Source: Alphaproteobacteria bacterium
GTDB taxonomy: Bacteria; Pseudomonadota; Alphaproteobacteria; MPNO01; UBA830
Direction: 5' to 3'
Length of the DNA: 64,000 nucleotides
Assembly: GCA_964291215.2 (NCBI GenBank)
Contig: OZ219790.1
Span: 416,001 to 480,000 of the forward strand
Shown: piece by piece, positions 136 to 24,399 of the stretch
Layout: every line of letters starts with the position of its first letter
Position numbering within the stretch: the stretch's first letter is position 1
Notes under the pieces: generated by a model
The model's database searches: none
Told to the model about the DNA's origin: nothing
The model's input: only the letters and a program-made list of their open reading frames with translations
Translations under genes and position numbers: made by a program

Positions 136-3100
136 TCAGTCACTCAGAAGGTATTGCGTGACCAGAGCCCGCATGATGGCCTCACCTCGTCCGGAGAGCC
201 GTCGAATGTCGACCTCCGACATCGCGGAGAAATCGGTCGGATAACGAATCACATCTTCTCTGTCGACCCAGTTGGCTGGCTTGAGCGGCACCCGCCGGTC
301 GATCTGTCCGAGAGCGGCGTAGACGAAGCCGTCAATGCGTTCCGCCTTGGCGTGCTCGTGTAGGCGTTGCTTGGTCGCGTCCTGGACCTTTCGCATGATT
401 GCGGAGACGACTTGGCTCATGCGCTTCGGCCAGCTGAGGGGGCGGATCTCGCCGGTGAACTGGCCGATCCCGGCGTCGCTTGCGATGATGATGTCGACGT
501 CGTAGTCAATCGTGCTGATCCGGGGATCCCGGTCAGGTTCCATGACGGTAATGCCGAGGTTCTCGAAAACGCCGCCATCGGTCACGATGACCCGCTGCAT
601 TTCGGTCTTGTCGTTTAGTTTGAACGGCCTTCTCCAGTCGAAGGGCGGAAGTAACGGCGGGTAAGCGGCCGAGGCTGCGACGGCGTCGGCCACGCGAAGT
701 TCTCTGGCCGGAGCCCATCCATACCGGTAGGAGCCGAAGCGTTGGTTGCTCATGCGGAAGGCAGTGCCGGTTCGAAGCTCACACGCGTTGAAGACGATCA
801 ACTTGTGCTGACGGGTGGGTGCATCGCATTTCTGCGGGCCGACCACGTCGGCAATGGCGTCGGCCAACACATGCGTTAGCGAGTAGCGGCGTCGGATGGG
901 CCACGAGGTGCGGGACAGCGCGGCGCATGCACTGCGGAGACCCGGGAAGAGCGAGGCGACACGACTCGCCGACCCGGTGAGGAGGTCGACAAGGAGCGTT
1001 GGGAAGGCGACGAAGACGAAGTTCCATACAAGGGGCGCAGCGCGCGCGGGATGGATGAGTTTCACGAGTCCCGGCACTACCAGGCCCCGGCGAAGGAACT
1101 GGACGATGTTGCGATCTATGTCGACGAACGGTGCTTCGGTATAGCCGAGCCTCCCGGTCATGACGGCCCCACCCGACACGCCGGAGATCACGTCGACCTC
1201 ATTGAGCAAGTTCAGGTCTTCGAGCGCGCGCAAGGCGCCAAGGTGAAACGCAACGGCGCGTGATCCGCCGCCAGAGAGTGCCAGACCGATCACCTTGTCG
1301 AGCGCCGCGACGGGAGGCGGAGTGGTGATGCCGCCGCGGACCGAAAGGGCCAGCTCGGTTTCGGTATCAAGCGCGGCGAGTTTCTGTTTCTGGAATGTGT
1401 AGACTCCGAGTTCCGGTTGCGTACGGACCGCGTGGCCGACGATCGCCATCAAATGATGGGCGCCGTCATCAGGAGCCGCTGTAAAGATGTCGGTGATGCC
1501 CAGGTAGTCGGTGAAGCTGGGTTGGGCACTACCGACCGGATGGGAATGCCAGGTGCCGATGTAGCGAACGATACCGTCGGTGCGCGCGCGGTAGTCCTCG
1601 CACAGCTCCCTCGTGCCGTGCGTTCCGCAAACGAAGCCCTCGGGAGAGAAGGTGCTGTCGCGCGGGGGGCCGCTGACGTTGGTAATCCACGCGATTCCGA
1701 GGGTCTCGTCCAACTCGCCGAACAGCAGGCCGCCGGTCTCGTGCTCGGCGGAGCGTTCACGGGCGCCGGCGCGGACCCAGCCCGTCATGTCGCGCCAGGC
1801 GTTCATGGACATGCGGAAGTCGATTCCATCGGCGATCCAGCGCATGTCGGGTCGAAAGCGGAACCTGTGCTCGCGACGATGGGGAGAGCACGAAATGAGA
1901 AGACCGCTGGCTGCATCGTCCGGTTCGGCGAGGATTTGGGCGAGAGCGTTGAGGGCTTGGGCAGAGAGCGCGGCGACATCGGTATGCGACGCCACGAAGG
2001 TCGGATTGGAGCAGCCGGGCTCGGGTTGGCGGAGGCCGTCGATGGCCCCCTGGGTCCAGAAGGCTTCGGACCAGTCGCTCAGCCAGTCCCGCGCGATGGC
2101 GGCGATGCCGAGACGGCGAAGCGCGTCGAGGGGGCCGGCGCGGTATCCGGTTGGAGCGAGCACCGCAACCGCTTGGCGGGCGGTGGCGCTGATCATCAAG
2201 GTCGCAATGGGAGCCTGGCGCTCGTGCTCCTTGAGCAGCGCCTCGAGCTTGCTGCGCACCTGCAGAGACGCGGTCGCGTCGATGATGAGGTCGGCATCCG
2301 CGTCCCAGTCCGGTTCGGCGAGGGTGTGCGAGATGAGGTCCTCGGACCGGGTCGTGACCTGAAGTCCGGGGGCGATGGATTGCAGACGCCCGGCAAGCGC
2401 CGCGGCCTTGGGCTCATTGGCGTCGAGTGCGGAGAAATTCTGCCGTATCAGCAGACTGGGAGCGACACGGCCTCGATCGAAGAGCTTGAGTTGGGACACA
2501 CCGGCGCGTACGAGATGTTCGGCGATGAGCCCGCCGATCGCCCCGCAGCCCCAGAGCGCAACGCGCTTGCCGCGAAACCAGTCCATCGATGTGCCCTCGT
2601 CGCGCCGAGTGATGACTTCGGGCCGGTTCTCAATCACATGACACCATCGTACACGGGCTTCCTTCCTCCAGGTAAACAAGGTGCCGAGGATGGTGTCGCT
2701 CAATGCCTGTATGGCAGCGGGAGTGTCCTGTCCTTTGTAGCGGTTGCTGAATTGGCAGGCGATGGATGCGGCGCGCAGCTTGGCGACGTCCCCCGGCTCA
2801 ATTTCCCAGAAGGTGAGGTGCTGGTTTCGTTGTGCGGGGTCGCCAGCGATGCCGCGCGACGGCGCACCGATGCCGATGTAGAGTGAGGTGCTATCGGGGA
2901 TCCGCTCGGAAGCGACCATCATGTGGGCAAGGAAGCGGTAGCCCAGACGTCCCTTGGCCTCCAGGTAGTCGAAAAGGTATCGTACTTTGCGCGGGTACTC
3001 GAACGGAAGCTCGAAGTTCAGCAGCACGGTCGGCGCAAACGGCATGTGGTCGGGGAGCGCATGCAGGGGGATCCACGCCTGGACTTCGAGAAGGGCCGGT

Positions 3101-3636
3101 TTGGGCTCATGGAGGGTGGCGGCGCCGAACCATGGCCAGGTATCACGAGCCGGGGTGTCGGCGTTGACGCAGATCGTAGTTGTGGCAACCGGGTAGGTGA
3201 CCGGCGGGTGCAGGGGTCCCTCGGGATCGTCGAGCTCGTTTCGCGCTCCGCGTCGAAACCACTCGTCGATCTGCGCCAAGAACCCGAACATGCCTTGGGA
3301 GGGGATCCACTGGGTCTCGGTGGACAGATAAACGCAGAGACGGGTTCCCCACTGCACATGGCCGAAGCCGTGGAACCGGGAATGGGGGGTGTCGACCGAC
3401 GGCGAACTGAATGGAAAATCCGCCGGCACCGAAAGCGTGATGCCTTCTCGGTCGTGCAGCGGAAGGCCTCCCTCGACACGCGGGTAGTGCGTGCAGTCGA
3501 GCGAGATATCGACGTTCAGATAAGCGCCGGGAGCCGGGTCATCGTCGATACCGACGATCCGGATGGGAGATCGGTGCGTATTGGCGATACGCCGGAGTTG
3601 GGTGAGGGCAATCCGTTGCCCTTCACTTATTGCCAC
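136..3636 (-). CDS. Four-domain fusion: E2/UBC-like + ThiF/E1 adenylyltransferase + JAB/MPN isopeptidase + patatin phospholipase (1166 aa)
   Basis: E2: FPFSSPSV..HVQWGTRLC (Cys101). E1: VALWGCGAIGG..FDRGRV..LIRQNF and PEPGC (Cys542). JAB: HETGG (E633) and WHSHP..SFTD (H697/H699/D710). Patatin: LALSGGGSRA, GVSGG (S821), DGG (D1020). Single uninterrupted ORF whose GTG start overlaps the end of the upstream MBL gene. Confidence 0.9.
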   Translation of the reverse strand: MAISEGQRIALTQLRRIANTHRSPIRIVGIDDDPAPGAYLNVDISLDCTHYPRVEGGLPLHDREGITLSVPADFPFSSPSVDTPHSRFHGFGHVQWGTRLCVYLSTETQWIPSQGMFGFLAQIDEWFRRGARNELDDPEGPLHPPVTYPVATTTICVNADTPARDTWPWFGAATLHEPKPALLEVQAWIPLHALPDHMPFAPTVLLNFELPFEYPRKVRYLFDYLEAKGRLGYRFLAHMMVASERIPDSTSLYIGIGAPSRGIAGDPAQRNQHLTFWEIEPGDVAKLRAASIACQFSNRYKGQDTPAAIQALSDTILGTLFTWRKEARVRWCHVIENRPEVITRRDEGTSMDWFRGKRVALWGCGAIGGLIAEHLVRAGVSQLKLFDRGRVAPSLLIRQNFSALDANEPKAAALAGRLQSIAPGLQVTTRSEDLISHTLAEPDWDADADLIIDATASLQVRSKLEALLKEHERQAPIATLMISATARQAVAVLAPTGYRAGPLDALRRLGIAAIARDWLSDWSEAFWTQGAIDGLRQPEPGCSNPTFVASHTDVAALSAQALNALAQILAEPDDAASGLLISCSPHRREHRFRFRPDMRWIADGIDFRMSMNAWRDMTGWVRAGARERSAEHETGGLLFGELDETLGIAWITNVSGPPRDSTFSPEGFVCGTHGTRELCEDYRARTDGIVRYIGTWHSHPVGSAQPSFTDYLGITDIFTAAPDDGAHHLMAIVGHAVRTQPELGVYTFQKQKLAALDTETELALSVRGGITTPPPVAALDKVIGLALSGGGSRAVAFHLGALRALEDLNLLNEVDVISGVSGGAVMTGRLGYTEAPFVDIDRNIVQFLRRGLVVPGLVKLIHPARAAPLVWNFVFVAFPTLLVDLLTGSASRVASLFPGLRSACAALSRTSWPIRRRYSLTHVLADAIADVVGPQKCDAPTRQHKLIVFNACELRTGTAFRMSNQRFGSYRYGWAPARELRVADAVAASAAYPPLLPPFDWRRPFKLNDKTEMQRVIVTDGGVFENLGITVMEPDRDPRISTIDYDVDIIIASDAGIGQFTGEIRPLSWPKRMSQVVSAIMRKVQDATKQRLHEHAKAERIDGFVYAALGQIDRRVPLKPANWVDREDVIRYPTDFSAMSEVDIRRLSGRGEAIMRALVTQYLLSD

Positions 3637-4780
3637 GACCGAATCCGACCGCGACGGCAGGCGGCGACGCGGCGACGCCGCCGACAGCCTTCAGCACCTC
3701 GCTCATGGAGCTGCTCGATTGTGTGTCGCCAACATATGCGAAACCGTTCCGGTCGACCTCGAAGATGATCGGCTTGGGATTCTTGCGGTTCGGGTGTTCG
3801 TGGGTGCACAGGAAGGCGTTGGCGACGATGCGTTCGTACTGTCTCTTCGCCTTGGCGTGAGGTGGGTTGTCGCCCGGGTCGTTGCGTGTCGGCACAGGTT
3901 CGGAACTCGAGACGACATGTCCCGGGTTGAGGGCTGCGGCAGCGATCTCGCGAACGATATGCTCCTTTAGGGTCTCGTCGCTGTCCCCCTCTTCCTTCCA
4001 GTACATGGCGGACTTCGAGCAATGATGCGGGGCGAGCAGCACATTCCAGGCGAGTGTCGTGCGGATACTTCGGTGGAAGATTCGCCGGATGACGGGATAG
4101 CTGAGGTCCCCCATGAGCAGTGCCCGGCCAGCGTGGTTGCCATTGTAGAGCGAGACCTGGAAGGCGAGGCTGCAGTCGTTGCGGTCACCGAAGCTGTCCT
4201 CGCGAAACGGGGCGTGGACAAACGCCTCGAACCGATTGGAGAGATCCTCACCGTCCAGTGTCGTAATGGTCTTACCGGGAATGGTCAGGAACTGCGCGGG
4301 GAAGCCACGAAACTCGCGTTCGCACAGAAGGTCGTCGTAGCCGATGATGCGAATGCGGTTACCCCGGCCGGGGTCGCCGCCCGCCCGGATAGCGGCTTGG
4401 ACGCGACGCATGGCCTCATCGTGAAAGGCTTGTGCGTCGTCGCAAAGGTCGTCGCCCTCCATGAATTCGCGAAAGGTGCGCGGCGACATCCAGAGTTCGG
4501 AGACGATGACGCGGCGTTTCAACTCCTCGAAGCCCTGGCAATGGTCGAGATCGGGATGGCTAAGTCCGAACACCGACAGGTATGGCGTGCCGCTGAGTCT
4601 CGGAAGGATACGTATGAGCTCGTCGATGACCGGCCAGGCGGGGTCGCTGCGGTTTCCCGCCTTGGCCATGTGCCGAAGGTCGATTTGAAGGTAAACCGTT
4701 TCTGTTACTCGAATGGTCGTGCTGTCGCCCGTGCCGACGGGCCAGAAGATGAAGCCCTGATCAGGTGGTTTGATGGCCAT
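3623..4780 (-). CDS. Metallo-beta-lactamase-fold (ComEC-like) hydrolase with a flexible C-terminal tail ending VGFG-RGNK
   Basis: Motifs VGTGDS, SHPDLDHCQG, NDCS..GDL and PHHCS. ATG at 4780 follows an AAGGGG RBS. Overlaps the next gene by 14 nt. Confidence 0.85.
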   Translation of the reverse strand: MAIKPPDQGFIFWPVGTGDSTTIRVTETVYLQIDLRHMAKAGNRSDPAWPVIDELIRILPRLSGTPYLSVFGLSHPDLDHCQGFEELKRRVIVSELWMSPRTFREFMEGDDLCDDAQAFHDEAMRRVQAAIRAGGDPGRGNRIRIIGYDDLLCEREFRGFPAQFLTIPGKTITTLDGEDLSNRFEAFVHAPFREDSFGDRNDCSLAFQVSLYNGNHAGRALLMGDLSYPVIRRIFHRSIRTTLAWNVLLAPHHCSKSAMYWKEEGDSDETLKEHIVREIAAAALNPGHVVSSSEPVPTRNDPGDNPPHAKAKRQYERIVANAFLCTHEHPNRKNPKPIIFEVDRNGFAYVGDTQSSSSMSEVLKAVGGVAASPPAVAVGFGRGNK

Positions 4781-5056: not shown

Positions 5057-5407
5057 TCACCCGGTGTCATGGTGCGCGAGCGTGGACGGAGCGGTGAGAA
5101 TGTCCTCGGCAGGCCGCTCCGCATCGGGGTCCGGCACGATCGTCGAGATGAACTCCCGGATTTCCTCTACTTCGGCCTGGCGTCCGTTGGCGATGAGGTT
5201 CCGGGCGATGGCCTGGGCGGCGAACAGCGAGGCCCGGGCCATCTTGATTTCGGTCTCGGTACCGGGCCATTCGCGCCGGTCGAGGGCCTCGATGGCGAGG
5301 TCGACGACGAGCCGATTGGGCGAAACCTGCCGCTCCCTTGCCGCCGTTTCGATACGCTTCCACTGGTCTGCGGTGACCCGGATGTTCTTCTGAAGTGACG
5401 ATGCCAT
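5057..5407 (-). CDS. Small ribbon-helix-helix/CopG-like DNA-binding protein (116 aa)
   Basis: N-terminal QKNIRVTADQWKRIETAARERQVSPNRLVVDLAIEAL fits a strand-helix-helix pattern. Confidence 0.55.
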   Translation of the reverse strand: MASSLQKNIRVTADQWKRIETAARERQVSPNRLVVDLAIEALDRREWPGTETEIKMARASLFAAQAIARNLIANGRQAEVEEIREFISTIVPDPDAERPAEDILTAPSTLAHHDTG

Positions 5408-6660: not shown

Positions 6661-7281
6661 TCAGGCGGGGCAGCGCATGACCGGGATGCCGAGGCTGCGG
6701 GCCTTGTCGACGAGGTTGTCGGTGATGCCGGAGCCGGGGAAGGCGATGACGCCCTTCGGCAGGAGGTTGAGCAGGTCGTCGTTGCGGCGGAAGGGGGCGG
6801 CGCGACCGTGGCGGTCCCAGTCGGGCTTGCAGACGACCTGGTGGACGCCGTTGCGCTCGGCCCAGCTTGCGGCGATCTTCTCGACGCCGGGGCCGCCGCC
6901 ATGGACGAGGACGAGGTCGGCATACTTGGCGCGGACCTTGTCGAGGCGCTCGATGACGGCCGCCGGGTTTGCGATGTCCTTTCCGCCTGCGATGGCGACG
7001 AGGGTTCCCTGGGGCAGGTGGGCCTGTGTCTTGCGGTCCTTTCGGGCGCGGACGAAGTCGCGGGCGTCGATGGCTGCGGAGGTCAGATGTCCGGTCTGGC
7101 TGGCGTGGCTGCCGCGCCGGGGCCGCCATGTGTTGCCGGTGACGGTGCGGTAGGCTTCGGCGGCCTCGTCGCGGAGAGCCTCGAAGGCGTCGCGTCGGTC
7201 GCCGAAGAGTGCGGCGTTGTCGCAGACGATCGCGGTTGCGGACTGCGCGGCGGTCTTGATGGTGTCGGTATGGAAGGTCAT
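6661..7281 (-). CDS. DUF2493 / YspA-related SLOG-family protein, internally deleted copy (206 aa)
   Basis: LVAIAGGKD..LVLVHGGGPGVEKIAASWA..PDWDRHGRAAPFRRND..VIAFPGSGIT. Lacks about 100 codons present in the copy at 32282-33201. Confidence 0.8.
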   Translation of the reverse strand: MTFHTDTIKTAAQSATAIVCDNAALFGDRRDAFEALRDEAAEAYRTVTGNTWRPRRGSHASQTGHLTSAAIDARDFVRARKDRKTQAHLPQGTLVAIAGGKDIANPAAVIERLDKVRAKYADLVLVHGGGPGVEKIAASWAERNGVHQVVCKPDWDRHGRAAPFRRNDDLLNLLPKGVIAFPGSGITDNLVDKARSLGIPVMRCPA

Positions 7282-7667
7282 GTCGTTTTCCTTTCGGTTT
7301 TCACGTTCGGGGCCGATCCCCGTTGTGATGTCCTGTCGGGACACGCGCGCGGACCGCAGCCACCGGGGCCGGAATGAATGGCCTGGCGGGATGCGCGAGT
7401 GGTGCGGGCGCACAAGCGAGCGCAGCAAGCGCGGAGCCACGGTCGCGCATTCCGCTAGGCCCAGGCGCGCCCGCGCCGTTTCATTCCGAGTCCCGGCCGG
7501 AACGGAGCGCGAGCGGAGTGGAGGACCCCGCAGGGGTTGGCGGAGGGAGCCCGTGTGGCACAATGGGACAGCACAGCACCCGGCCAATTCTCTCGCCCTG
7601 CACGGACCCCATCGGCGGTTCGGCCGGCACGGTGCCGGAGCGGGAGGCGCCGTTGCCCGCCCTTGCG

Positions 7668-7895
7668 TCAGTTCCACAGGGGATGGGAGTCGACCCGCTG
7701 CCGGGCGACCTCGCGGATGCGGGTGCGGTCGTGGAGATACACCGGCCCGCGCGGGTCCTCGTCGAGATGTATGGCGAACACCCTGCGCCCCGGCCGGGTG
7801 CTGTCGTCGAAGGCGTGGACGTCGCCGACATGGTCGCCGTCCCGGTAGATGCGGGATTCGTCGGGGGCGATGCGGCGAAAGGTGATGGTGCTCAT
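7668..7895 (-). CDS. Conserved hypothetical protein (75 aa), copy 1
   Basis: MSTITFRRIAPDESRIY.. with a GGAG RBS. Near-identical copy at 33572-33799. Confidence 0.7.
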   Translation of the reverse strand: MSTITFRRIAPDESRIYRDGDHVGDVHAFDDSTRPGRRVFAIHLDEDPRGPVYLHDRTRIREVARQRVDSHPLWN

Positions 7896-8077
7896 CGGGT
7901 TCTCCGGGTAGCGTGACGGGTGCGCGAGCGGGCTCCCTCTCCTCCTCGCGCGGTTCACCCGCTTTCCAGCCTCGCTCCCACTCCCGTATGCGCCGCGGCG
8001 AGACTCGAACCTGCCCGCATGAGAAAAGGGCCGGCGCGCGAGGCGCCGACCCTGTGGGGAGGGAAGAACGGGAAGCT

Positions 8078-8524
8078 CTAGAACGGGATATGGTTCCCAT
8101 CCATCGGGTCGCCACCGGCCGGCGCGGCGCCGCCCGCCGCGTCCGGGCCGGGCTGCCCGGCGTTGCCGTTCGCCTTGTCGAGGAACTGGACGCGCCCGCC
8201 GGGCACGAGCAGGATCTCGGTCGAGAAGCGGTCCGAGTCCTCGCCCGGCTTCGACCAGCGCCGGGTCTGGAGCTTGCCATCGATGTAGACCAGCCGGCCT
8301 TTCGTGGCGTGCCTGGCGAGCATGTCGATCAGCCCGTCCTGGAAGGTCACGACCCGGTGCCACTCGGTCCTGTCGATCCGCTCGCCGCTGCCGTTCCGGT
8401 CGATGTAGCTCTCGTCGGTGGCAACGCTCAGATTGGCGACGCGGCCGCCGTTCTGCAGGTGGTTGATGGTGACGTCCGCACCGAGGCGGCCGATGATCTG
8501 CGCCTTGTTCAGTCCGAAGCTCAT
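8078..8524 (-). CDS. ssb: Single-stranded DNA-binding protein
   Basis: LNKAQIIGRLGAD..VANLSVAT..TEWHRVV..GRLVYIDGKLQTRRW and C-terminal IPF. Confidence 0.95.
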   Translation of the reverse strand: MSFGLNKAQIIGRLGADVTINHLQNGGRVANLSVATDESYIDRNGSGERIDRTEWHRVVTFQDGLIDMLARHATKGRLVYIDGKLQTRRWSKPGEDSDRFSTEILLVPGGRVQFLDKANGNAGQPGPDAAGGAAPAGGDPMDGNHIPF

Positions 8525-10651: not shown

Positions 10652-11551
10652 CTAAATCCCTGGGATGTAACCGAACGCTGACTTAACTATTGAACTGAAA
10701 ATGCCGACGACAATCGCCGCGAGTGCAACACGGTGCCGTGTGGCGCGATCTTTATTCTCCTCCAATATGTTTACCGGAAAAGCCCACTTCAAGTATCCAA
10801 ATAACGCCCGATAAATCACGAGAGATATTCCCATTCCATATATATAAAAGGCCACACGGAAGGACGAGTGATCGCCATCATTTGGAAGAAAGTAGTCAGC
10901 GTATACAGTAACCCAATACAGTGCGTACGGTAGTGCAAGAAACCAAAGTCCAACATCGTAGGCAAAACTCTCATGAATGAAGGAATACCACTTCTTTTTA
11001 GACTTGAATTTACTATTTGCGATGTCCCTAATTGCATGAAAGTAAGCAGAATTACATGCTTGAATTGATACGTTGCTGTTGTTGGGTGTTGGTTCAGACG
11101 TCAACGAATTGAAATCAAATAGCGGCGGTTTGTCGAACTGAAGCAAAACCGAGAAACGATTCGGAGGAATATTTCCATTCGTGTACTTTTTGTACGAGTT
11201 CTCATTCGTGAAATACACCGCTTTGATGGGAAACGGCAAATTCTGAGAATCGAAAATCTGCTCTGTCTCCCCGTACTTAGTTTGGCCTTCAAAACCAACT
11301 ACTGACACTGTCAACCGGAATGCACCATCCAACAGAACGTTTTTTCGTTCTGCGAATTCATCTTCGGTCTCGCCATCGAACTTGGGAACGGTAGCAACAT
11401 CCTGCTGTCCCTCCTTCCTCGTGAGAGTGTTTAATTCACGATATGCGGCTTTGATTTGTGGCAAGGATAACTGGCATCCGCGTATTGGTATATTGTCCTC
11501 CCACCACTGGATATCGTTTGCGGCATGGCTGATTAACGAAGTGCCGGACAT
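10652..11551 (-). CDS. AT-rich hypothetical membrane protein, soluble N-terminus with about three C-terminal TM helices (299 aa)
   Basis: Hydrophobic segments VGLWFLALPYALYWVTVYA, VAFYIYGMGISLVIYRALFGYL and VALAAIVVGIFSSIV. Visibly lower GC than flanks. GGAG RBS. Confidence 0.75.
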   Translation of the reverse strand: MSGTSLISHAANDIQWWEDNIPIRGCQLSLPQIKAAYRELNTLTRKEGQQDVATVPKFDGETEDEFAERKNVLLDGAFRLTVSVVGFEGQTKYGETEQIFDSQNLPFPIKAVYFTNENSYKKYTNGNIPPNRFSVLLQFDKPPLFDFNSLTSEPTPNNSNVSIQACNSAYFHAIRDIANSKFKSKKKWYSFIHESFAYDVGLWFLALPYALYWVTVYADYFLPNDGDHSSFRVAFYIYGMGISLVIYRALFGYLKWAFPVNILEENKDRATRHRVALAAIVVGIFSSIVKSAFGYIPGI

Positions 11552-11624: not shown

Positions 11625-12032
11625 TCAACATGGAGATTCGATAGGACCGGAGTTTATCCGAGTGGTCAGCGGGCAAATGTCCCAATCAAGGACGCGACCA
11701 AGCGAGAAGGCGCGGAATCGGCCTTTTCCTTCCTTGCCGTGCAGAATTCGCTTCTGTCCGTTCGAATGAAATCGCGATTGTTTCCACGATCCTCCCAGAC
11801 GGGAGAACAACCCCTCGGCTTCGGCAAAGGGAATGCCATGTCCGTTGTCGGCGACTCTGATGGCCTTGAGCCCGTCGAGGTCCTCTTCAACCAGCGTCAC
11901 GTCGATATGCGTGGCATCCGCATCGACTGCGTTCCAGATCAGCTCGGCCAGGGCAAGGAGGGGTTTTCGGGTCTGCGCGACCCGTTCCAGATGGTCGTCC
12001 TGAACCTGTATCTCAAAGGTCCTGGCGGTCAT
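11625..12032 (-). pseudogene. Truncated GHKL (HATPase_c/MutL-Hsp90-like) ATPase
   Basis: [22 protein letters not shown] and GKEGKGRF motifs. Similarity ends after about 120 aa. ATGA overlap with the hsdR stop. Confidence 0.8.
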
Positions 12033-15000
12033 GCTGCCCACTTCGCCGATAACGCTTCGGCCTGTTGCAGAACCGTCTGCACGGCGGCGTCCTGGAGGTC
12101 GGGCGGATACCCGTGCTTGCGGAGGATGCGCTTGACCAGAACCCGCATCCGGGCGCGGGCCGGCCCGCGGTGCTGCCAGTCCACGGAGGCTTTGCTTTTC
12201 AGCCCGTTCAGCAATTCCCGGGCGATGACGCGAAGGTGATCGTTGCCCATCACCTCGACCGCGCTCTCGTTCTGGGCCAGGGCATCGTAGAAGGCGATTT
12301 CCTCGGGGCTGAGACCCTCCTCCTCGCCGCGCCGGTGTGCGGCGCGGATGTCCTTCGCAAGCCCGATCAGTTCCTGAAGGACCTCGGCCGTCGTGAGGGC
12401 GTTGCCGTGGTAGCGGGCGATCGCTTCTTCCAGCCTCCGGGAGAAGGCCCGGGTCTGCACGACGTTGACCCGGCTTCGCGAGCGAAGCTCCCCGTTGATG
12501 AGCTTGCGCAGCGCCTCCAATGCGAGGTTCTTCTTCTCCATCTCCCGTATCTCGGCCAGGAACTCGTCGGAAAGGATGGAAATGTCCGGCGTATCCAGCC
12601 CGGCGGCTGCGAGAATGTCGACGATCTCGGTCGAAACGACCGCGCGGCTGACGATCTGCTGAACCGCCAGGTCCCGCTCCGCGGAGGACTTGCCGGCGCC
12701 GGGCGCGCTTTTGGCGAGCGCTGCACGGACGGTCTGGAAGAAGCCCACCTCGTCGCGGATTTCCCGGGCTTCGTCGCTGGCGGCCGCGAGCGCGAACGCC
12801 CTGGTGAGCGCCAGCACGGCGTCGTTGAAGCGGCGCCGGGCGTGCTTCTTGCCTTCTCCGGTCGATTCCCGGGCCGCCTCGCGGTGCTGCATGTCGAGGA
12901 CCCACTCGATGGCGCCGGCCAGCGCCGCGAGCCGCTCCTGCGGCGACCCGACAAGGCCGTTGCGGAAGTCGAAACCATGGAACATGGCGCTCACGATCTC
13001 GTACTTCTCCAGCATGACCGCGACGGCTTCGGCCTCGTCGATGCCGGCGTGCCTTCGGTCGTCGCGCGAGTACTGGCCGAGGGCGGACTTCAGGTTCTGC
13101 GCGATGCCGATGTAGTCCACGATCAGACCGGCGGGCTTGTCGCGGAACACGCGGTTGACGCGGGCGATGGCCTGCATGAGCCCGTGCCCCCGCATGGGCT
13201 TGTCGATGTACATCGTGTGCAGGCGCGTCGAAGCCGGTCAGCCACATGTCCCGCACGATCACCAGCCTGAGCGGGTCGTCCGCGTCCTTGATCCGCTTGG
13301 CGAGCAGCTCCCGGCGGGCCTTGCCTCCGATGTGGCGTTGCCAATGCGTCGGGTCCGACGCCGCGCCGGTCATGACGATCTTGATGACGCCGCTTTCGTC
13401 GTCGTCGCTGTGCCAGTCCCGGCGCAGCCTGACGATCTCGCCGTAGAGCGCAACGCAGATGCGGCGGCTCATGCAGACGATCATGGCCTTGCCGTCCATG
13501 CCGGCAATACGACTCTCGAAATGGTCGACCAGATCCCGGGCAACCAGGCGCAGGCGCTTCTCCGTCCCGACGACGGCCTCGACGTTCGCCAATCGTCTCT
13601 TGAGCCGTTCCTGCTCGCCTTCGGCCTCGTCCTCGATCAGTTCGGCGACCTCGTCGTCGAGCGCCGGCTTCTCACCTTCGTCGAGTTCGATGCGGACGAG
13701 GCGGCTCTCGTAGTAGATCGGTACGGTCGCGCCGTCTTCGACGCCGCGGTTGATGTCGTAGATGTCGATGTAATTGCCGAACACGGAAGGCGTGTTCACA
13801 TCCTCCCTTTCGATCGGCGTGCCGGTGAAGCCGATGAAGGAAGCGTTCGGCAGGGCGTCGCGCAGATATTTGGCGAAGCCGTAGGAAATCTCTCCGGTCT
13901 TGCGGGCCATCCTGGCGCGGAAACCGTACTGGCTGCGGTGCGCCTCGTCCGCGATCACGACGATGTTGCGGCGGTCGGAGAGGGCCGGGTATTCGATCTC
14001 GCCGGCCTCGGGTGCGAACTTCTGGAGGGTGGTGAACACCACGCCGCCGGACGGACGCGTCAGAGCCTGTCGCAGGTCCTCCCGGCTGTCGGCCTGCCGC
14101 GGGGTCTGGCGGAGCAGGTCGCGGCACATGGAGAACGTGCCGAACAACTGGTCGTCGAGGTCGTTGCGGTCGGTGAGGACCACGAGGGTCGGGTTCTCCA
14201 TCGCCGGGTGGGCGATGACCTGTCCGGCGTAGAACGCCATCAGCAGGCTCTTGCCGGAGCCTTGCGTGTGCCAGATCACGCCGATACGGCGATCGCCTGC
14301 CGGGCTCGTCGCGGTGATCGTGCGCTCGATCGCATGGCGTACGGCGTGAAACTGGTGATAGCCGGCCACGATCTTGACCAGTCCCGCGCCCGTGTCCCCG
14401 AACACGGTGAAGTCCCGGATCAGGGCCAGGAACCGGTTCTTCTCGAACACGCCTTCGACGACGGTTTCGATCTCGGGGGCGCCCTTCGATGCGACGGCGG
14501 CGCCGTCCACGGTGCGCCAGGGCATGAACCGCTCAAGATTGGCGGTCAGCGATCCGAACCGCGCCTGAAGGCCGTCCGAAGTCATGAGAGCGGCATTGGT
14601 GCGGAACAGGGAAGGTATCTCCTCCTTGTAGGTCCGGAGCTGGTTGAACGCCCCTTCGAGGGTGGCGTTTTCGTCGCCGGGGTTCTTCATCTCGATCACG
14701 GCCAGCGGCAGGCCATTGAGGAACAGCACGATGTCGGGGCGGCGATTGTGTTCGTGCTCGATCACCGTGAACTGGTTCACCGCCAGCCAGTCGTTGGCCT
14801 CGATGTCGTCGAAATCGATCAGACGGGCAGCGTCGCCGCCGATGCTGCCGTCCTCCCGCGCCACCTCGACCGGCACGCCCGCGATCAGGTAGCGGTGCAG
14901 GCGGCGGTTCTCCTCGACGAGGGAGGGAGTCTCCGTCTGCCGCACCTTGCGGAGCACCTCCTCCAGCGCCGCGGCGGGCAGGTCCGGGTTGAGGCGGGCG

Positions 15001-15164
15001 AGCGCCTCGCGGAACCGGCCGGCCAGCAGCACCTCGTCGTAGCTGCCCCGCTCCGGCGCCGGGCCTTCCGGGCCCATGTCCGGCCCATGAACCACGGCAT
15101 AGCCCAGTCCGGCGAGCCATGCGAGAGCCGCGTCTTCGACATCCGATTCGGAAAGACGGCTCAT
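12029..15164 (-). pseudogene. hsdR: Type I restriction enzyme R subunit, frameshifted near 13222
   Basis: [46 protein letters not shown], then MYIDKPM continues in another frame. Confidence 0.92.
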
Positions 15165-16150
15165 TCGCCGGATTCGCCCAGAAGATTGACGATAAGGCGA
15201 ATTATGAGATCCTTGTTCGACGGTGCGCTTTCGGCGATCAACAGGGTGAGCGCCGTCAACCCCCGGGGGTCGAGCCGGTGCGCGATTCCCTCCTGTGTCA
15301 GATAGAGCAGGAACAGCAGGGCGCCGATGCGCTTGTTGCCGTCGGTGAACGGGTGATCCTTGACCAGAAAATAGAGCAGGTTGGCCGCCTTGTCCGCGGC
15401 GCTGCGGTAAAGGGGTTCGCCGAACATGGTCTGCTCCACATTGCCGAGAATGGCTTTCAGGGCTTCGCCGCGCCGGGTGCCGAACAGCGATGTGGCTTCG
15501 CCCTTTGCCGCAAGATCGCTCCTGAAAGCGTCGATCGCGGCGACGGCGGTGTCGAGGCCGAGCGCGCTGGTGGCCGGCTTCGCGCCGGCCGGCGCCTTGA
15601 GGCGGTCCTCGTCGTATTCGAGCAGCACGCGCCACGTGTCGGCGTATCTTGTGATCAGGTCCAGTACGGACTGGCCCGTTTCGTCGACGAGCGCTTGGTT
15701 CCTGAGCGTCCGGGCGAGCAAACCCAGGGTTTGGCGCGCCTCGTCGAGGCCCCGCTCGGCAAGCCGCCGCTCATTCATCGTGTAACCGCTGACGAGATGC
15801 TCGCGCAAGGTGCGGGTGGCCCAGATACGGAACTGTGTGCCGCGCAGGGACTTCACCCTGTAGCCGACCGAGATGATCATGTCGAGGTTGTAGTGATCCA
15901 CCTCCCTGGATACCCTTCGCCCGCCCTCGGATCGAACCTGTGCAAAATTTGCACAGGTTGACCCTGGGTCCAGCTCTTGTTCACGGTAGGCGTTGTGGAT
16001 GTGCCGGGCGATTACGGAACGATCCCGCCCGAACAGTTCCGCCATCTGCGGCCGGGTCAGCCAGACTGTCTCCCTGTCGAAACGCACGTCCACGCGCGCC
16101 TCGCCGTCCCCGGACTCGTAGACGATGACTTCGCCGCCGGGGGAGTTCAT
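15161..16150 (-). CDS. RhuM-like virulence domain + Fic/Doc domain protein
   Basis: [14 protein letters not shown] and [21 protein letters not shown] (RhuM), plus [11 protein letters not shown] (Fic/Doc motif). Stop/start overlaps with hsdS and hsdR. Confidence 0.9.
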
Positions 16151-17759
16151 GCAACGTCCTCGACTGCCTCTTCGGCATCACGAAGGCGGATTTCGCCGGA
16201 CATGAGCTTGGGGAGCAGGAGGTCGCGGGTTTCTGCAAGCTTTCGGCTCTCCAGTTTATTCTTGATGGTGTGTTCTATCAGCGGGCCAATCGACGGGCCA
16301 AGCAAGGAAAGGACGCCATCAGAGGGGCAAGTCGTTGTTGCCTCCTTCAGGTGCCGTCGTTGAATGTGACCCATGGTTGTTGTCTTCGAGGCTGCTATAG
16401 CCTGAAACTCTTCCAAGTGATGGAGAACCCACTGGCTGACGAACCATGATGGAAATCTCTCCGAAGTCACTTTGAAGAGGTGTTGGTTCAGCGCTCCTTC
16501 GCCTTCGGTCCAGAACTTTGCAAGAAGGCTGCCCGACCAAGAGAACAAGAAGTCACCATCCCTCACGACATACTTGTCTGGGACATCGTATGAGGCCCGG
16601 CTAGATCTGGGCGTTATGCCCGCGCGCAACTCGGCGATTTTGATGACCGGTAAACTGTCGTCAGGGCCCAAGGCAGGAAATTTCTGAAGAGCCAGACCGT
16701 TCAGGAAGTTTGCGATCTTGTCGAGAGGCAGTCTCACCCACCCGGCCGGCTTGCCCTCGCCGTCCAGCGCATCGGGAAACAGTTCCCACAGTTCGGGGGC
16801 GAGGTACGGAGCACGCCCTTCCATTTTCGCCCGGACCGGCCCGAAATCGACGAACCAGTCCTTGAAGATCGCCCGCGCCATCGCCTCCAGCGTCTCGTTC
16901 ATGCGCCGGTTCAGTTCGATCTTGTCGTCCAGCGCGCCGAGAATGCCCGCAATGGCGCGCTGTTCGAGTAGGGGGGTACTGGAACCGGCAGATAACTCAG
17001 GGAATCGACAGGCACTCGCTGACGCCCGGAAGTGCCGGTCATTTGATCCACGGCGTAGCTTCTCACCCCCTCCCATTGAGTTAGGTAGTAGGCGTACTCG
17101 GAATCCGTGACGCCCGCGCGTCCGCGGATAACGATGAACTCGGTCGAGCCATGCGCGCACTCTGCCGCCCGGTCTGTGCAATAACGGGCAATCTTGCCAT
17201 TCTCCAAGCACGGCGTAATGCGCGCCATGAGCGTGTCGCCATCTTGGAAGCGCGACCCGCCGCCGGAATAGGCGCGCCGGTCAATCGCATGTACGCACCG
17301 GGAACCGGCAGTGACCGCAGCCATATCAACGAACGGATACGCCATTCCGCGTTCAAGACGCACTGCCGGGTTGACAACGACTGCTTCGGTAAACGGCATA
17401 CGCCGCCACTTTTCATCTACAGAGAGCCTCCTTCGCCTGGTGTCATCAATGTCTGCCAGCACCGCATGGTTCCGCTCAATCTCCCGATGAAATCGCTCCG
17501 GCAGGCGCGCCCAGTCGCGGGCCTCGACCAAGAAGGGAATGGTCGATTCCCGCACCGCCTCCTCGAAGTCCGCCAACTTGTCGGCCGGGATCTCCCCCTG
17601 TCCCGGCCCGCGCAGCACCAGATCGAGATCACTGCCGTCATGGCTGCGCCCGTTGACGCGGCTGCCATAGGCCCATACCTCGACATCGGGCAAATGCTCC
17701 CGCAGCAGGGCTGTCAGCACCTGGCGGTGCTTCGGCTCAAGATGCAACCGGTCAGTCAT
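16147..17759 (-). pseudogene. hsdS: Minimal nucleotidyltransferase (MNT) fused to type I specificity subunit HsdS; frameshift at G6 tract 16971-16976
   Basis: N-terminal AYGSRVNG..SDLDL (MNT), then TRD1 (ARITPCLENGK, GTSGRQR), PP/LLEQRAIAGILGALDDKIELN, TRD2 and RDLLLPKLMSGEIR. Confidence 0.88.
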
Positions 17760-18177
17760 CCGGCGCCGCCTCGATCATGTCCGCCAGCGCCCGGGCATCG
17801 GCGATAAAGTCGGGCAACAACTTGAGCGGGGTCTCGGCGAAGCCTGCGCCGTAGTCGTGCGCGGTATCGTTGCGGTTGTCGCGATAGCTGAACCAGCGTT
17901 CCGCCGCGACGGCTTCGATCAGTCCGTGCCGGGCGGCGTGGCGGAACAGGTCCTTGAAGGCAAGCCGGTCCGCCTGTCTGTTGCTGGCGAAGAAGGCGGC
18001 AAGCCGCTTGCGCAACAGTTTGCCGCTCTGCTCCAACACCAGCTCGAACTCCTTCACGCAGGCGGCGCGATAGATGTCATACATGAAATCGTCCGTCGCG
18101 CGCTGGTTGTCGATCTCGCCGAAAGCTGTCTCCAGCGTTCCGATGCAGCGCCGCAAGAAGGTGGTATCGATGCTCAT
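17752..18177 (-). CDS. HEPN toxin (HI0074 / nucleotidyltransferase substrate-binding family)
   Basis: ACVKEFELVLEQSGKLL..KDLFRHAA..RNDTAHDY (Rx4H). Directly upstream of MNT-HsdS. Confidence 0.85.
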   Translation of the reverse strand: MSIDTTFLRRCIGTLETAFGEIDNQRATDDFMYDIYRAACVKEFELVLEQSGKLLRKRLAAFFASNRQADRLAFKDLFRHAARHGLIEAVAAERWFSYRDNRNDTAHDYGAGFAETPLKLLPDFIADARALADMIEAAPDD

Positions 18178-18299
18178 GCCCCGCTGCTCCGTCCCCGGTG
18201 CGCAGACCCGTTGCGGCTCATCCATGAGCGGCAGACCGATTGGTCGATCAATTTCGGCAAGATTATGAGCCTCAGCAACCGTTGCTATGACACAGGCGT

Positions 18300-18570
18300 G
18301 CGCCATGTTGCCCACCGGAATTTCCTCCAATTCTGGTCCGCGCAGCACCAGATCGAGATCGCTGCCGTCATGGCTGCGCCCATTGACGCGGCTGCCATAG
18401 GCCCACACTTCGACATCGGGCAAATGCTCCCGCAACAGTACCTCAAGCGCCTCGCGGTGCTTCGGCTGGAGATGCATCCGGTCAGTCATCCGGCGCCGCC
18501 TCGATCATGTCCGCCAGCCCCGGTGTCGGCGATAAAGTCGGGCAGCAGCCTCAGCGTGGCCCCGGCGAAG
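18300..18570 (-). pseudogene. Remnant of a second HEPN-MNT pair (HEPN 3-prime end plus truncated MNT)
   Basis: 18340-18545 is a near-identical repeat of 17610-17815. The MNT copy (ATG 18489) diverges after about 60 aa. Confidence 0.75.
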
Positions 18571-18724
18571 TCTTTCCCGTTGTCATGGACGATATCGTTA
18601 TCGACAATCCCTCGCAGGTCATGGCAGGGGCAAGGCTGTCGGGGAACAGCCTTCACTGGAAGGCGCCGCGCGCCTTGGCTTACCGACATATTTCCCGGCG
18701 CATGCAAATGGGAAGAGATCATCG

Positions 18725-20263
<1,539 letters not shown>

Positions 20264-20494
20264 ATAGTCTGAATCCTTGGCCGCCAACGCGGATACAGTT
20301 TGCCGACTCGGCTCTACGAATACCACTGCATACTTGGCCGACACGGTTCGGGTGGGGAAGGATCCCGTAGATCGCGGTGCCACCATTCCAGCGTCGCCGA
20401 CGCTGCCCAACAGATCAATATGATAGCGCGTCACGGGGTACAGGATGCGCCGCCCGAGCGACAGGCACTGAGCTCGACTTTGTACAAAATTACC

Positions 20495-22533: not shown

Positions 22534-22962
22534 CTACTTACGCCAACTCCCTGACCATAGACCACGCCATATTCGTACGATCCGTGATCGAAGAGCCCGA
22601 CGGCTCCGTGTTGAGTCCAGCAAACGGGCCCGCTCGCCGTCGACATACTCCGAATGACGACTTGGATCGATCCCCTCCAACCAAATCACCGCGTTATCCC
22701 GTATCACGTAGTGGCTGCCGCAGCCGGAATTGGCCCACACGGATCCACCCGTAGGACCGTCCAGCGAGACCGACTTCCCATCGAAGTGAACGTGCCATCG
22801 ACTGGGGTGGAGGGACAGCACCGTCAGATCGCCGCATCCGCAAGGGCAGCGCAGGTTGACAGTCCGATGTTTGTGGCTGATCCAAAGCTCGCCGGTTTTG
22901 ATTTGGTCGAACTTGGGCAGCACCTCTACGAAGACAGGGCAGAGTTTCACGGGCATTCTCAC
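22534..22962 (-). CDS. DUF6527-family protein
   Basis: GELWIS..CPCGCG..LSL...W..SV...GCGSHYVIR..VIW pattern. GTGA overlap with the ThiF gene. Confidence 0.8.
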   Translation of the reverse strand: MRMPVKLCPVFVEVLPKFDQIKTGELWISHKHRTVNLRCPCGCGDLTVLSLHPSRWHVHFDGKSVSLDGPTGGSVWANSGCGSHYVIRDNAVIWLEGIDPSRHSEYVDGERARLLDSTRSRRALRSRIVRIWRGLWSGSWRK

Positions 22963-24161
22963 CGCGAGTCATTCGCTCTGACACTGACAATGCGCGGGGT
23001 TTCGAGTCGGAATTTATAGAGGAACGAAGCCGACTCCGACACATACTGCTCCGTGCGGCGCCGCCACTCCATCACGGCGAGCGACGCCGCCAACGCGTTC
23101 ACTTCCGGTAACTGGACGTTGTGATAGCCGGGCACACTGCCCTCGATTCTAGCGTTCGGTATGGCCTCCTTCCATGCCTCAGACCCAGCGGCATAGGCGC
23201 TTGTCGTCACGGCGCCTCTAACAGCGCAGTCTTCCAGCGCTATGCTCACGCCCGAATCTATAAACGGAACCTTCGTCTCAGAGAGTGCGCAGTAGACGGC
23301 ATCCTGACGCGACGAATCGCCGTTGGTCAGCTGGTCGATACACACGAATGCATAGTCGATGGGGTGTGCCGACAGAAACTTGCCGAAAATTGACGGACTG
23401 TCTACCCGGACAGCGTGCGCGTGGATGCCTTCCCGGAGAGGTGTATACTTGGAGAAGTAGTAGTCTACTTTGCGCAAATGTTCCTTTTTGCACGACTCAA
23501 CCTCCTCGGCTGTAGGTGCACCGGGCGCACGCATCAAATTGTGCCAGTTAACGTCGTCTGAATCCAGTAGATGAATTTCCTTCACGGGTGTTTTTGCGAC
23601 AAGATCGAGGACGTAGGCGCCTGTTCCGCCCAGACCAATGATCGCAATCCGTTGACTACGGATGCGATCCTGAACCGGCCTCAACGCCGCTCGTGCCTCG
23701 AACGTGTTGGGTATCTTGAAAGGCTCCTGCTTCGCTAGAGAAGCGGTTTCGTAGTAACCGGCCTCCGACACGGCCCCGACGATCTGCTTCGCGTAGCGGT
23801 GAATCAAGTCATCCACCGACCCATCCTCCTCCGGACTGCCTTGCCCACCTTTCTTGATGGAAATGATCGACCAAGTCTTTCCATCGCCGGCGATGTAGTT
23901 CTCGATCGGGGTTCCATCCGCGTGGTACACGCGCCCGTCGAGTTCTTCGTCAGTGATGATCCGCACCGCATGGATCGCGTCGCCTATCTGATCATTCGGC
24001 TTCCCGTTCGCGCGGTCGTACGACTTCTCTATAGTGCAAGTGCCAACGCCCCTGTCTGCAAGGAGACAAGGCACCCCCACGGCCCGGACGACATCGGAAT
24101 CGACTCTGATGCTAAACCCGGCCTGCTCACCGAACGCTTTGAGGCGATTCCTACGAGACAT
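22959..24161 (-). CDS. E2-like (DUF6791-like) + ThiF/E1 adenylyltransferase fusion (400 aa)
   Basis: IAIIGLGGTGAYVLDLVAKTPVKEIHLLDSD..HNLMRAPG, FVCID, FIDSG and YHNVQLPEVNALAA. ATG 24161 overlaps the end of the Ubl gene. Confidence 0.85.
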   Translation of the reverse strand: MSRRNRLKAFGEQAGFSIRVDSDVVRAVGVPCLLADRGVGTCTIEKSYDRANGKPNDQIGDAIHAVRIITDEELDGRVYHADGTPIENYIAGDGKTWSIISIKKGGQGSPEEDGSVDDLIHRYAKQIVGAVSEAGYYETASLAKQEPFKIPNTFEARAALRPVQDRIRSQRIAIIGLGGTGAYVLDLVAKTPVKEIHLLDSDDVNWHNLMRAPGAPTAEEVESCKKEHLRKVDYYFSKYTPLREGIHAHAVRVDSPSIFGKFLSAHPIDYAFVCIDQLTNGDSSRQDAVYCALSETKVPFIDSGVSIALEDCAVRGAVTTSAYAAGSEAWKEAIPNARIEGSVPGYHNVQLPEVNALAASLAVMEWRRRTEQYVSESASFLYKFRLETPRIVSVRANDSR

Positions 24162-24399
24162 GCTCGGGGTCGACCGAAAAGCTTGTGCCGTCCTTGACTT
24201 TAACATCCTTGCTCGGCAAGAGAACACCATCCTCGTCCTTGAAATCGTCTTTGTAGTCGATGCCGGGTGTACCGATGATGTGCTTGTTCTCTGCCTTGTG
24301 CAGCTTGTTCCAGATCTTTACGACCTCGGCATAGTTAACAATATGGCCGGGGACTTTGTACACTCGACCGCTCACGTAGATCTCCGTGTCGCCATTCAT
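24151..24399 (-). CDS. Single-domain ubiquitin-like (multi-ubiquitin family) protein, 82 aa, ending in Ser
   Basis: IYVSGRVYKV..VNYAEVVK..IDY..GVLLPSKDVKVKDGTSFSV fits the beta-grasp Multi_ubiq pattern. GGAGAAG RBS. Sits first in an operon with an E1. Confidence 0.7.
   Translation of the reverse strand: MNGDTEIYVSGRVYKVPGHIVNYAEVVKIWNKLHKAENKHIIGTPGIDYKDDFKDEDGVLLPSKDVKVKDGTSFSVDPEHVS

Follow-up and report, generated by a model that had tools for sequence, protein, structure and literature searches.

The window analyzed here, a stretch of 64,000 nucleotides covering positions 416,001 to 480,000 of contig OZ219790.1 (GCA_964291215.2), carries two overlapping open reading frames (ORFs) on its minus strand. 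The upstream ORF (3623-4780, ATG at 4780) encodes a metallo-beta-lactamase (MBL) fold enzyme of 385 residues. The downstream ORF (136-3636, GTG at 3636, from which ligase residues are counted) encodes a ligase-patatin protein of 1166 residues, and the two share 14 nucleotides. Because both proteins pass the NCBIfam cut-offs for 6A-MBL, the operon is classified from its sequence as an intact copy of this named anti-phage system, to which a patatin has been added. An earlier note, made from the DNA alone, had proposed two overlapping intact genes for an MBL and an E2-E1-JAB-patatin protein, and the ORFs, the Pfam order and the conservation in relatives bear this out. The residues and motifs named there (C101, GxGxxG, C542, E633, H697, H699, D710, GGGxR, S821 and D1020) are all present at those positions and conserved. 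The features of the operon are as follows.

3623-4780, minus strand: 6A-MBL MBL-fold enzyme (NF058524), 385 residues, with a ComEC-like metallo-beta-lactamase fold
3638-3646, minus strand: Gly-Phe-Gly (MBL residues 379-381) ending a disordered tail; predicted conjugation handle, with G381 as the terminus once trimmed
3623-3637, minus strand: four extra MBL residues (RGNK) and the stop codon, read from the sequence, overlapping the ligase GTG start
136-3636, minus strand: single-chain E2-linker-E1-JAB-patatin protein, 1166 residues, a 6A-MBL cap2_3 (NF058523) plus a C-terminal patatin
3187-3636, minus strand: E2 domain, residues about 1-150, with the conserved catalytic C101 (PF14457, 67.8 bits)
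2635-3186, minus strand: linker domain, residues about 151-334, inside the PADLOC E1-E2 match and folded in the AlphaFold2 (AF2) model
1852-2634, minus strand: ThiF-type E1 domain, residues about 335-595, with GxGxxG at 363-368 and C542 (PF00899, 68 bits)
1381-1824, minus strand: JAB/JAMM peptidase, residues about 605-752, with E633, H697, H699 and D710 (PF14464, 31.8 bits; PADLOC JAB models)
1759-1803, minus strand: JAB helix 612-626, a predicted patatin docking surface including R626 (complex prediction and conservation)
1300-1380, minus strand: JAB-patatin linker, residues about 753-779, variable in sequence, with a dip in the predicted local distance difference test (pLDDT) score at its start
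139-1299, minus strand: patatin-like phospholipase domain, residues 780-1166 (PF01734, 63.1 bits against a cut-off of 27.7)
1210-1230, minus strand: patatin residues 803-809 (R803, D807), predicted to contact the JAB helix (complex prediction)
964-1038, minus strand: hydrophobic helix inserted in the patatin, residues about 867-891 (hydropathy 1.6-1.85; a helix in the AF2 model)

The assignment to 6A-MBL is carried by both proteins. The ligase-patatin matches NF058523 (6A-MBL_cap2_3) with 338.2 bits against a cut-off of 320, over positions 5-665 of 665, and the MBL matches NF058524 (6A-MBL_enzyme) with 285.6 bits against 220, over the full profile (1-346). The Pfam domains Prok-E2_A, ThiF, Prok-JAB and Patatin follow in this order, each above its cut-off, and PADLOC models match the E1-E2 part (PDLC00857, residues 3-585, E 3e-76) and the JAB (E 3e-20). 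The two genes are adjacent, the E2, E1, JAB and MBL metal-site residues are intact, and the operon contains neither a cyclase nor a ubiquitin-like gene; among the ORFs of 80 residues and more, no beta-grasp ubiquitin-like gene lies next to the two. Operon type 6a goes back to Iyer, Burroughs and Aravind (2006; PMC1779556, in the part available), and PMC13276650 credits van den Berg et al. (2024) with naming 6A-MBL and testing it; this text, like 10.1101/2025.09.30.679545, cites it as a validated anti-phage system of P. aeruginosa.

The structural models agree with this assignment. For the ligase-patatin, the AF2 model has a mean pLDDT of 88.7 and a predicted template modelling score (pTM) of 0.81, its best Foldseek match is Cap2-CdnD (7to3, E 3e-22), and the catalytic C542 sits on a flexible loop. 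The linker domain is placed as the counterpart of the Cap2 linker and of the ATG7 N-terminal domain, to which it may be homologous; the role of the Cap2 linker is treated in section 8 of the Ledvina preprint (10.1101/2022.03.31.486616). The MBL model has a pTM of 0.86, with a tail of pLDDT below 50 (disordered), and its closest PDB folds are the ComEC beta-lactamase-like domain (9ic4) followed by the phosphorylcholine esterase Pce. MBL residues D19, H75, D77, D79, H80, D225, H252, H253 and H308 are invariant in 50 homologues, and the enzyme is probably a nuclease or phosphodiesterase. A promoter scan gave a single sigma-70-like site (4874-4845), which carries no weight because 1.1 such sites are expected by chance.

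The patatin domain contains a Gly-rich loop at 788-793 (GGGSR at 789-793), the GxSxG serine S821 and the DGG aspartate D1020, and its fusion to the JAB is real. A protein search with the ligase-patatin gave 571 proteins among 7996 scored candidates, and the best 120, the first of them the window's own cluster, were aligned (54 to 85% identity). ThiF and Patatin occur together in all 120 and all four Pfam domains in 115; C542, E633, H697, H699, D710 and S821 are present in 120 of 120, C101 in 115 with 5 gaps, and D1020 in 119 with 1 gap. Compared with seven intact relatives, the patatin part has a ratio of nonsynonymous to synonymous substitution rates (dN/dS) of 0.13-0.25 in six of seven pairs, similar to the other domains, while the seventh pair (0.42) is 96% identical and too close for judging. 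There is no stop or break between JAB and patatin, the point at which the earlier note had asked whether a misassembly might lie, and contigs of two other sequencing runs span the junction without gaps (X2 record 9, 733-1743; X3 record 19, 275-2046); the three runs compared, of five listed, all come from one study, of which this check is hence not independent. An assembly artefact or read-through as the source of the fusion is ruled out by the architecture of the homologues, the residue conservation, the bridging contigs and the dN/dS values.

The patatin add-on is common in 6A-MBL. In a search with the E2-E1-JAB part only, the best 150 of 4310 matches among 50%-cluster representatives comprised 41 proteins with a fused patatin (some partial), 96 JAB-containing proteins without extension, 11 fragments, one with a degenerate patatin-like tail and one with a fused hydrophobic tail. 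The patatin is thus not always encoded separately in relatives. The MBL neighbour is conserved as well: all 9 genome loci (one of them broken) have it upstream of the ligase gene, and so do 68 of the 80 metagenome loci; the other 12 consist of 11 without upstream DNA and 1 without MBL. These metagenome loci are the top 80 among 338, a choice that favours the fused query, and include 46 fusions (2 broken within the patatin), 9 with a window-type patatin as an adjacent gene, 7 with only another patatin subfamily nearby, 9 free of patatin and 9 cut off downstream. On plasmids, where 11 of 17 matches were inspected, ten carry the window-type patatin as a separate gene, nine of them right behind MBL and E2-E1-JAB (some broken); in the tenth (Mesorhizobium) it follows a different peptide/E2/E1/JAB/MBL operon, and the eleventh plasmid is a CBASS (cyclic oligonucleotide-based antiphage signaling system) case. 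Since separate-gene versions are this common, the covalent fusion is optional and dispensable, and the weight that the earlier note placed on the single-chain form falls away, as does its statement that 6A-MBL operons lack a lipase.

From an even draw of 400 other genomes of the phylum, with up to 4 candidates scored per genome, ten had an MBL above the cut-off and two a window-type patatin, both within a 6A-MBL locus; none of the other 390 genomes yielded a window-type patatin among the candidates scored. Nine of the sampled loci were readable downstream, and there the third position held a patatin (2), a protein of a family with four transmembrane (4-TM) segments (5), another hydrophobic protein (1) or nothing obvious (1). 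The curated two-gene definition therefore seems to miss a usual third component, as a patatin or 4-TM protein in seven of nine readable loci suggests. A sample of 400 genomes of the class added two patatin matches, one whose open frame of 1184 residues is the same as that of the fusion in the window and one immediately beside an MBL, and an Atlas search with the fusion returned a single 52-member cluster with ThiF, Patatin and Prok-JAB. The C-terminal position of the patatin is taken by a calcineurin-like phosphoesterase (PF00149) at four identical loci, and by the 4-TM family in P0172. Occurrence of the patatin subfamily is near-exclusive to ubiquitin-like operons, and judged by its sequence the patatin of the window belongs to this subfamily.

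The patatin form of 6A-MBL is a variant of a known system, neither rare nor a new class. The earlier note knew of no description of the four-domain architecture, and in the literature searched this holds: no description of a patatin-bearing 6A-MBL was found, in a search that did not cover van den Berg 2024, preprint supplements, the journal versions of Ledvina 2023 and Chambers 2024, or three papers by Burroughs and Aravind, any of which may already mention the third gene. Likewise, it was not found in the accessible parts of PMC13069673, 10.64898/2025.12.08.692795, PMC11601596, PMC10557695 and PMC13434031, and the parts of the Iyer 2006 supplements available (PMC1779556) mention "patatin" a single time, in a Shewanella gene list that names no MBL and looks unrelated. 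The databases, on the other hand, already hold the architecture under generic names.

Several other observations concern the relatives. The commonest third gene of 6A-MBL belongs to an unnamed family of about 230-290 residues with about four transmembrane segments (L124-L130, L075, L077, L079, L034, L045, L068, L081), once fused to the JAB (P0172); it has no match in Pfam, PADLOC or NCBIfam and appears only as unnamed Atlas clusters. The phosphoesterase loci (L072-L074, L076) encode an E2-E1-JAB-calcineurin-like metallophosphoesterase fusion, a single protein found four times in identical form; upstream of it lies a second MBL gene. A second, tail-less MBL, in some cases PDC-M48B-like, is frequent at 6A-MBL operons (L048, L065, L073, L089, L124, L126, L128 and others) and is absent from the operon of the window. 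At 14 metagenome loci that form a cluster, and also on three plasmids, the gene directly upstream of the MBL encodes an ImmA/IrrE-type peptidase (cases include L031, L033, L037, L047, L055, L058, L059, L062, L064, L065 and L098), which suggests damage-inducible control of such operons; no such gene directly precedes the operon of the window. A more distant patatin subfamily, often on the opposite strand and lacking the predicted docking residues described below, is found near several 6A-MBL operons (L037, L047, L058, L061, L062, L065, L098, L022). On the Mesorhizobium plasmid (L016:2282-7188, NZ_CP080523.1), the operon encodes a 57-residue peptide ending in Gly-Gly plus two residues, E2, Phd-E2, E1, JAB, a ComEC-like MBL without Gly tail and a window-subfamily patatin that is 76% identical to a Bradyrhizobium 6A-MBL patatin. 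Insertions of a few kilobases break the MBL and/or ligase gene of 6A-MBL at L010, L109 and L018.

If the fusion is dispensable, the question is what couples the lipase to the ligase. When linker-E1-JAB and patatin were folded as two separate chains, the complex prediction scored 0.73, against 0.00 for the best control. Of solved complexes, 116 of 157 reach the score mark, and of mismatched pairs 2 of 215; these figures are approximate because own alignments served as input. At least 90% of contacts are shared between the runs, and the partner pLDDT is at least 79. In the model, the ligase side of the interface comprises JAB helix 612-626, residues 653-661 and 673-685, and residues 508-515 and 592-594 of the E1, and the patatin side comprises 803-809, 838, 841, 1117-1122, 1152, 1160 and 1164-1166. 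The Foldseek PDB matches of the ligase-patatin model include no solved JAB-patatin complex, and we know of none.

Conservation follows the presence of the partner. This comparison excluded five cut-off loci and all rows whose context is unknown, and each group was thinned at 70% identity. In the 68 fused rows R626 is kept at 94%, in the 13 separate-gene rows at 100% and in the 20 patatin-free rows at 35%, the largest group difference of any column in the E1-JAB alignment, and JAB position 619 is Gly or Ala in 87% of the fused and 92% of the separate-gene rows. With a patatin present, interface columns gain 0.18 in mean conservation and the other columns 0.05. In the patatin itself, R803 and E1152 reach 100% in both the 23 fused and the 12 separate rows and D807 reaches 100% and 75%, respectively, while six rows of the other patatin subfamily lack conservation of R803, E1152 and D807. 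The patatin is thus predicted to bind the JAB whether fused or separate, and, if it docks in both forms, the fusion only fixes an existing complex. The earlier note had the lipase wired to the conjugation machinery by being on the same chain; the model and the conservation support a physical coupling beyond gene fusion, and it is the need for the fusion that did not stand.

These data also bear on the possibility that the patatin, as a neighbouring toxin in its own right or a passenger of defence islands, was fused by read-through and is functionally unlinked to conjugation. Fused, separate and absent states are mixed over the ligase tree, which needs 29 changes, 14 of them forced by starred branches (unfused rows include unknown contexts), and several loci are broken, as might be expected of a passenger. 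The patatin tree needs only 4 changes, and the approximately unbiased (AU) test does not reject a single origin of the fusion (p 0.114; 29 chosen rows, quick tree); the fusion may have arisen once or repeatedly. Among distant pairs, the identity of E1-JAB tracks that of the patatin (rho 0.57) more closely than the MBL tracks either (0.19, 0.12). With a subfamily that is near-exclusive to ubiquitin-like operons, purifying selection on the patatin, and a predicted interface with partner-specific conservation all against it, we find a mere passenger improbable.

The other partner of the ligase is likely the MBL. Gly-Phe-Gly followed by 3-4 residues forms the C-terminus of 118 of 121 close MBL homologues, and x[FY]G followed by 0-6 residues ends all 67 scored metagenome MBL tails, two of which have nothing after the Gly; among control ORFs of the window's genome, such a tail occurs in 25 of 1618. 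G381 is invariant in 50 aligned MBLs, and more distant MBLs carry tails of RAG or xHG type. The overlap between MBL end and ligase start is also found in close relatives, and the weak conservation of RGNK is likely due to the overlap of these codons with the ligase GTG start. In the accessible parts of two reports, CBASS cyclases conjugated by Cap2 have the C-termini GRFA or GGFA, and Cap3 cleaves past the last residue (10.1101/2022.03.31.486616; PMC11153139). The MBL tail motif resembles these C-termini, and by this analogy the MBL is the likely substrate of the ligase, with Gly-Phe-Gly as its likely conjugation handle; trimming and conjugation would then proceed through G381. Such a site would also be expected in the JAB-patatin linker if the JAB released the patatin, and the earlier note listed self-cleavage among the possible switches. 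No conserved Gly-Phe-Gly-type site is present in the linkers of the 27 fused proteins examined, which are variable, and this argues against self-release.

The absence of a nucleotide cyclase, another point of the earlier note, is confirmed for the operon and its immediate surroundings, and the three SMODS/DncV-like genes of the genome lie more than 1.7 Mb away or on another contig. At 17755-18489, the gene for a nucleotidyltransferase combines NTP_transf_2 with NTase_sub_bind and belongs to a restriction-modification cluster. Among 110 same-strand flanking ORFs of 89 relative loci no cyclase family was found; a nucleotidyltransferase-like motif in a flanking ORF of L028 was dismissed for want of Pfam support. 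CBASS membership is ruled out, as no CD-NTase (a nucleotidyltransferase of the cGAS/DncV type) is in the operon and the patatin is not of the CapV family. The patatin might still be a CapV-like effector activated in trans by cyclic nucleotides from cyclases elsewhere, given the three SMODS/DncV-like genes and the fold common to CapV (9kej, 16% identity). We reject this and regard it as scarcely credible, considering the distance within the same genome, the lack of SMODS or DncV-like genes in four of four other patatin-bearing genomes (three 97-100% complete, one 64%) and a PADLOC CBASS phospholipase match of only 44 residues (E 0.0019).

Our preferred interpretation is direct gating, in which the conjugation cycle itself would switch on the JAB-docked patatin and cause membrane damage during phage infection; we give it an even chance of being right. 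By the chemistry of Cap2 and Cap3, the JAB would trim the MBL after Gly381, the E1 would adenylate Gly381 and pass it by way of C542 and C101 to a lysine acceptor, and the JAB could undo the link, so that the MBL would occupy the position of the cyclase in type II CBASS. The patatin, fused or separate, is predicted to pack on JAB helix 612-626 and segment 653-685. Infection would alter the balance of ligation and deligation, MBL-loaded ligase dimers would cluster or reshape at the inner membrane, and the docked lipase would then hydrolyze phospholipid. These last steps are the weakest, and trigger and switch are the least certain parts of the proposal. The ComEC-like MBL might act alongside as a second arm, and infection would end in death or arrest of the cell. 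The slot of the lipase is taken in sister operons by a 4-TM protein or metallophosphoesterase. The hydrophobic patatin helix at about 867-891 is a candidate membrane-contact element in the model; in the alignment it is variable, shorter or missing in many relatives. A broader and more tentative reading, to which we give clearly less credence, is that 6A-MBL as a whole forms an immune system of three parts whose membrane effector can be exchanged. In its patatin form, a phospholipase gated directly by the conjugation cycle, the JAB would act as dock and allosteric relay for the lipase, and ligation or release of the MBL tail would fire lysis without a second messenger.

Several observations weigh against direct gating. 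The predicted interface excludes S821, D1020, E633, H697, H699 and D710, so a plain tether rather than a switch is possible. The conservation test shares sequences with the predictor, its rows are kin and non-independent, and the patatin-free group is more divergent and has 25% gaps at position 626. The lipase is dispensable for the family, as 6A-MBL comes without a patatin in seven of nine readable sampled loci and in most related clusters (97 JAB-containing rows against 41 that have it), and the slot is not strictly either/or, as transmembrane and patatin genes occur together in five loci (L034, L036, L045, L052, L054). A window-type patatin sits behind a different conjugation operon on the Mesorhizobium plasmid, and the degenerate patatin-like tail mentioned above (P0154) lacks the catalytic serine motif. 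Finally, a slot open to lipase, 4-TM protein and phosphoesterase alike resembles the effector slot of CBASS, and effectors of the CBASS type usually respond to a diffusible signal.

The last point leads to the MBL as a signal generator: primed by conjugation, it would make a diffusible product, for example a nucleotide, an oligonucleotide fragment or a lipid head-group product, that activates the effector in the third slot, and docking on the JAB would merely keep this effector near. The variety of partners, the phosphodiesterase-type enzymes among the fold neighbours of the MBL and the classification by Ye et al., who in the accessible text place "MBL pathways" with type II CBASS and Pycsar as conjugating "signaling enzymes" (PMC11601596), are in line with such a role. 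A diffusible signal would not need a specific, conserved JAB-patatin interface, however, and the identity of the patatin follows the ligase and not the MBL. Nor do the partners show a signal-binding domain of the SAVED kind, and we judge this reading unlikely.

We are equally doubtful that the patatin is a regulator or membrane anchor and the MBL nuclease the sole effector. Here the patatin might hold the ligase at the membrane, or it might provide or take away a lipid acceptor, for an ATG8-like lipidation of the MBL or for the release of membrane-bound MBL as with the CBASS cyclase on PspA. The curated system is the two-gene form, as in row 6a of Iyer (PMC1779556, in part), a 4-TM membrane protein is the partner found most often in place of the patatin, and a patatin-like fusion without the serine exists. 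Moreover, E1s of families 6a and 6b are related to ATG7, whose pathway lipidates ATG8 (section of 10.1101/2022.03.31.486616), and PspA, itself membrane-associated, retains a CBASS cyclase that Cap3 frees (Kruger et al., PMC11153139, in part). The catalytic Ser and Asp are nevertheless invariant in the close family, which would be superfluous for a pure anchor though not for lipid processing, and the patatin alignment has no invariant lysine fit as a fixed acceptor.

The broader reading of 6A-MBL given above would, if true, amount to a conjugation-triggered cell-death switch in bacteria. In the literature covered here, 6A-MBL has no mechanistic explanation, either for the substrate of its ligase or for the agent that stops the phage. 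The patatin form provides an enzymatic read-out, lipid hydrolysis, on the same chain as ligase and protease, and the R626-D807 interface together with G381 offers mutable handles for whether bacterial ubiquitin-like conjugation fires an effector without a nucleotide messenger.

The operon is located in a mobile, defence-rich region with a single-stranded DNA-binding protein (SSB), type I restriction-modification, a second E1 operon, integrases and transposases. Mobile-element genes occupy 5060-5407, 6664-8524 and 29214-52439 and include a weak NikA-like ribbon-helix-helix, YAcAr/SLOG, the SSB, a cluster of three integrases, a helicase of the strawberry-notch type, RadC and a ParB-like gene. 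The operon stands at the edge of this island, which is like an integrative and conjugative element or a plasmid, with transposases just past its 3' end. At 10652-11551 on the minus strand, a low-GC gene of 299 residues with a hydrophobic C-terminus has no Pfam or NCBIfam match and only a faint PADLOC match (E 0.01); it is possibly an uncharacterized defence membrane protein. The type I restriction-modification cluster follows at 11625-20434 (minus strand). Two ORFs in different frames share its HsdR matches (frameshift or assembly error), and the long ORF closes with an HSP90-like ATPase match. The cluster also contains two insertions, RhuM/Fic and a gene that joins a nucleotidyltransferase with a substrate-binding part. 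A candidate ubiquitin-like operon at 22654-24465 (minus strand) consists of a gene of 104 residues, a PRK06153-like gene of the ThiF family that stays below the cut-off, and a small ORF containing Cys, and is divergent from a helix-turn-helix plus IrrE/ImmA peptidase pair at 24881-26143 (plus strand). We take this operon to resemble those of the Bub/6e type.

Compared with known systems, the operon is closest to 6A-MBL, with an MBL gene beside a single-chain E2-E1-JAB gene and neither a cyclase nor a ubiquitin-like gene. Unlike the curated form, it has a patatin of 390 residues after the JAB, beyond the 665-position model; in relatives this patatin occurs either on the ligase chain or as a third gene, and a 4-TM protein or a metallophosphoesterase can stand in its place. 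Such a swappable third component is in neither the NCBIfam and PADLOC models nor the accessible text of Iyer 2006 (PMC1779556). With type II CBASS (family 6b), the operon shares a Cap2-like E2-linker-E1, a Cap3-like JAB, a substrate with a Phe-Gly/Ala tail and an effector of patatin fold. In contrast to type II CBASS, there is no CD-NTase, the tail is on the MBL and the JAB is fused to the E1, and in contrast to CapV, the patatin is of another subfamily and is predicted to bind the JAB directly. Conjugation by E1, E2 and JAB is shared with Bil and Bub, in which the pre-protein is trimmed by the JAB (sections of PMC10557695 and PMC11601596). The window differs from both in lacking a beta-grasp ubiquitin-like gene, in having an enzyme as cargo and in the attached lipase, and it differs from Bub in that its ligase keeps the cysteine chemistry. 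The ComEC-type defence MBL nucleases (Avs1a, HamM of HamMAB, PDC-M48B) resemble the MBL in that a ComEC domain is its top fold and PDC-M48B a weak match, but the MBL of the window has a Gly-terminated tail and a ligase as its partner, and not a STAND ATPase or helicase. The patatin, finally, has the catalytic motifs of ExoU and VipD, which are its best, weak PDB sequence matches (E 0.005-0.03, about 47 residues). This similarity is confined to the N-terminal motif region, and the patatin belongs to a defence operon instead of a secretion system. Patatins of the ExoU and VipD type are activated by a host protein partner.

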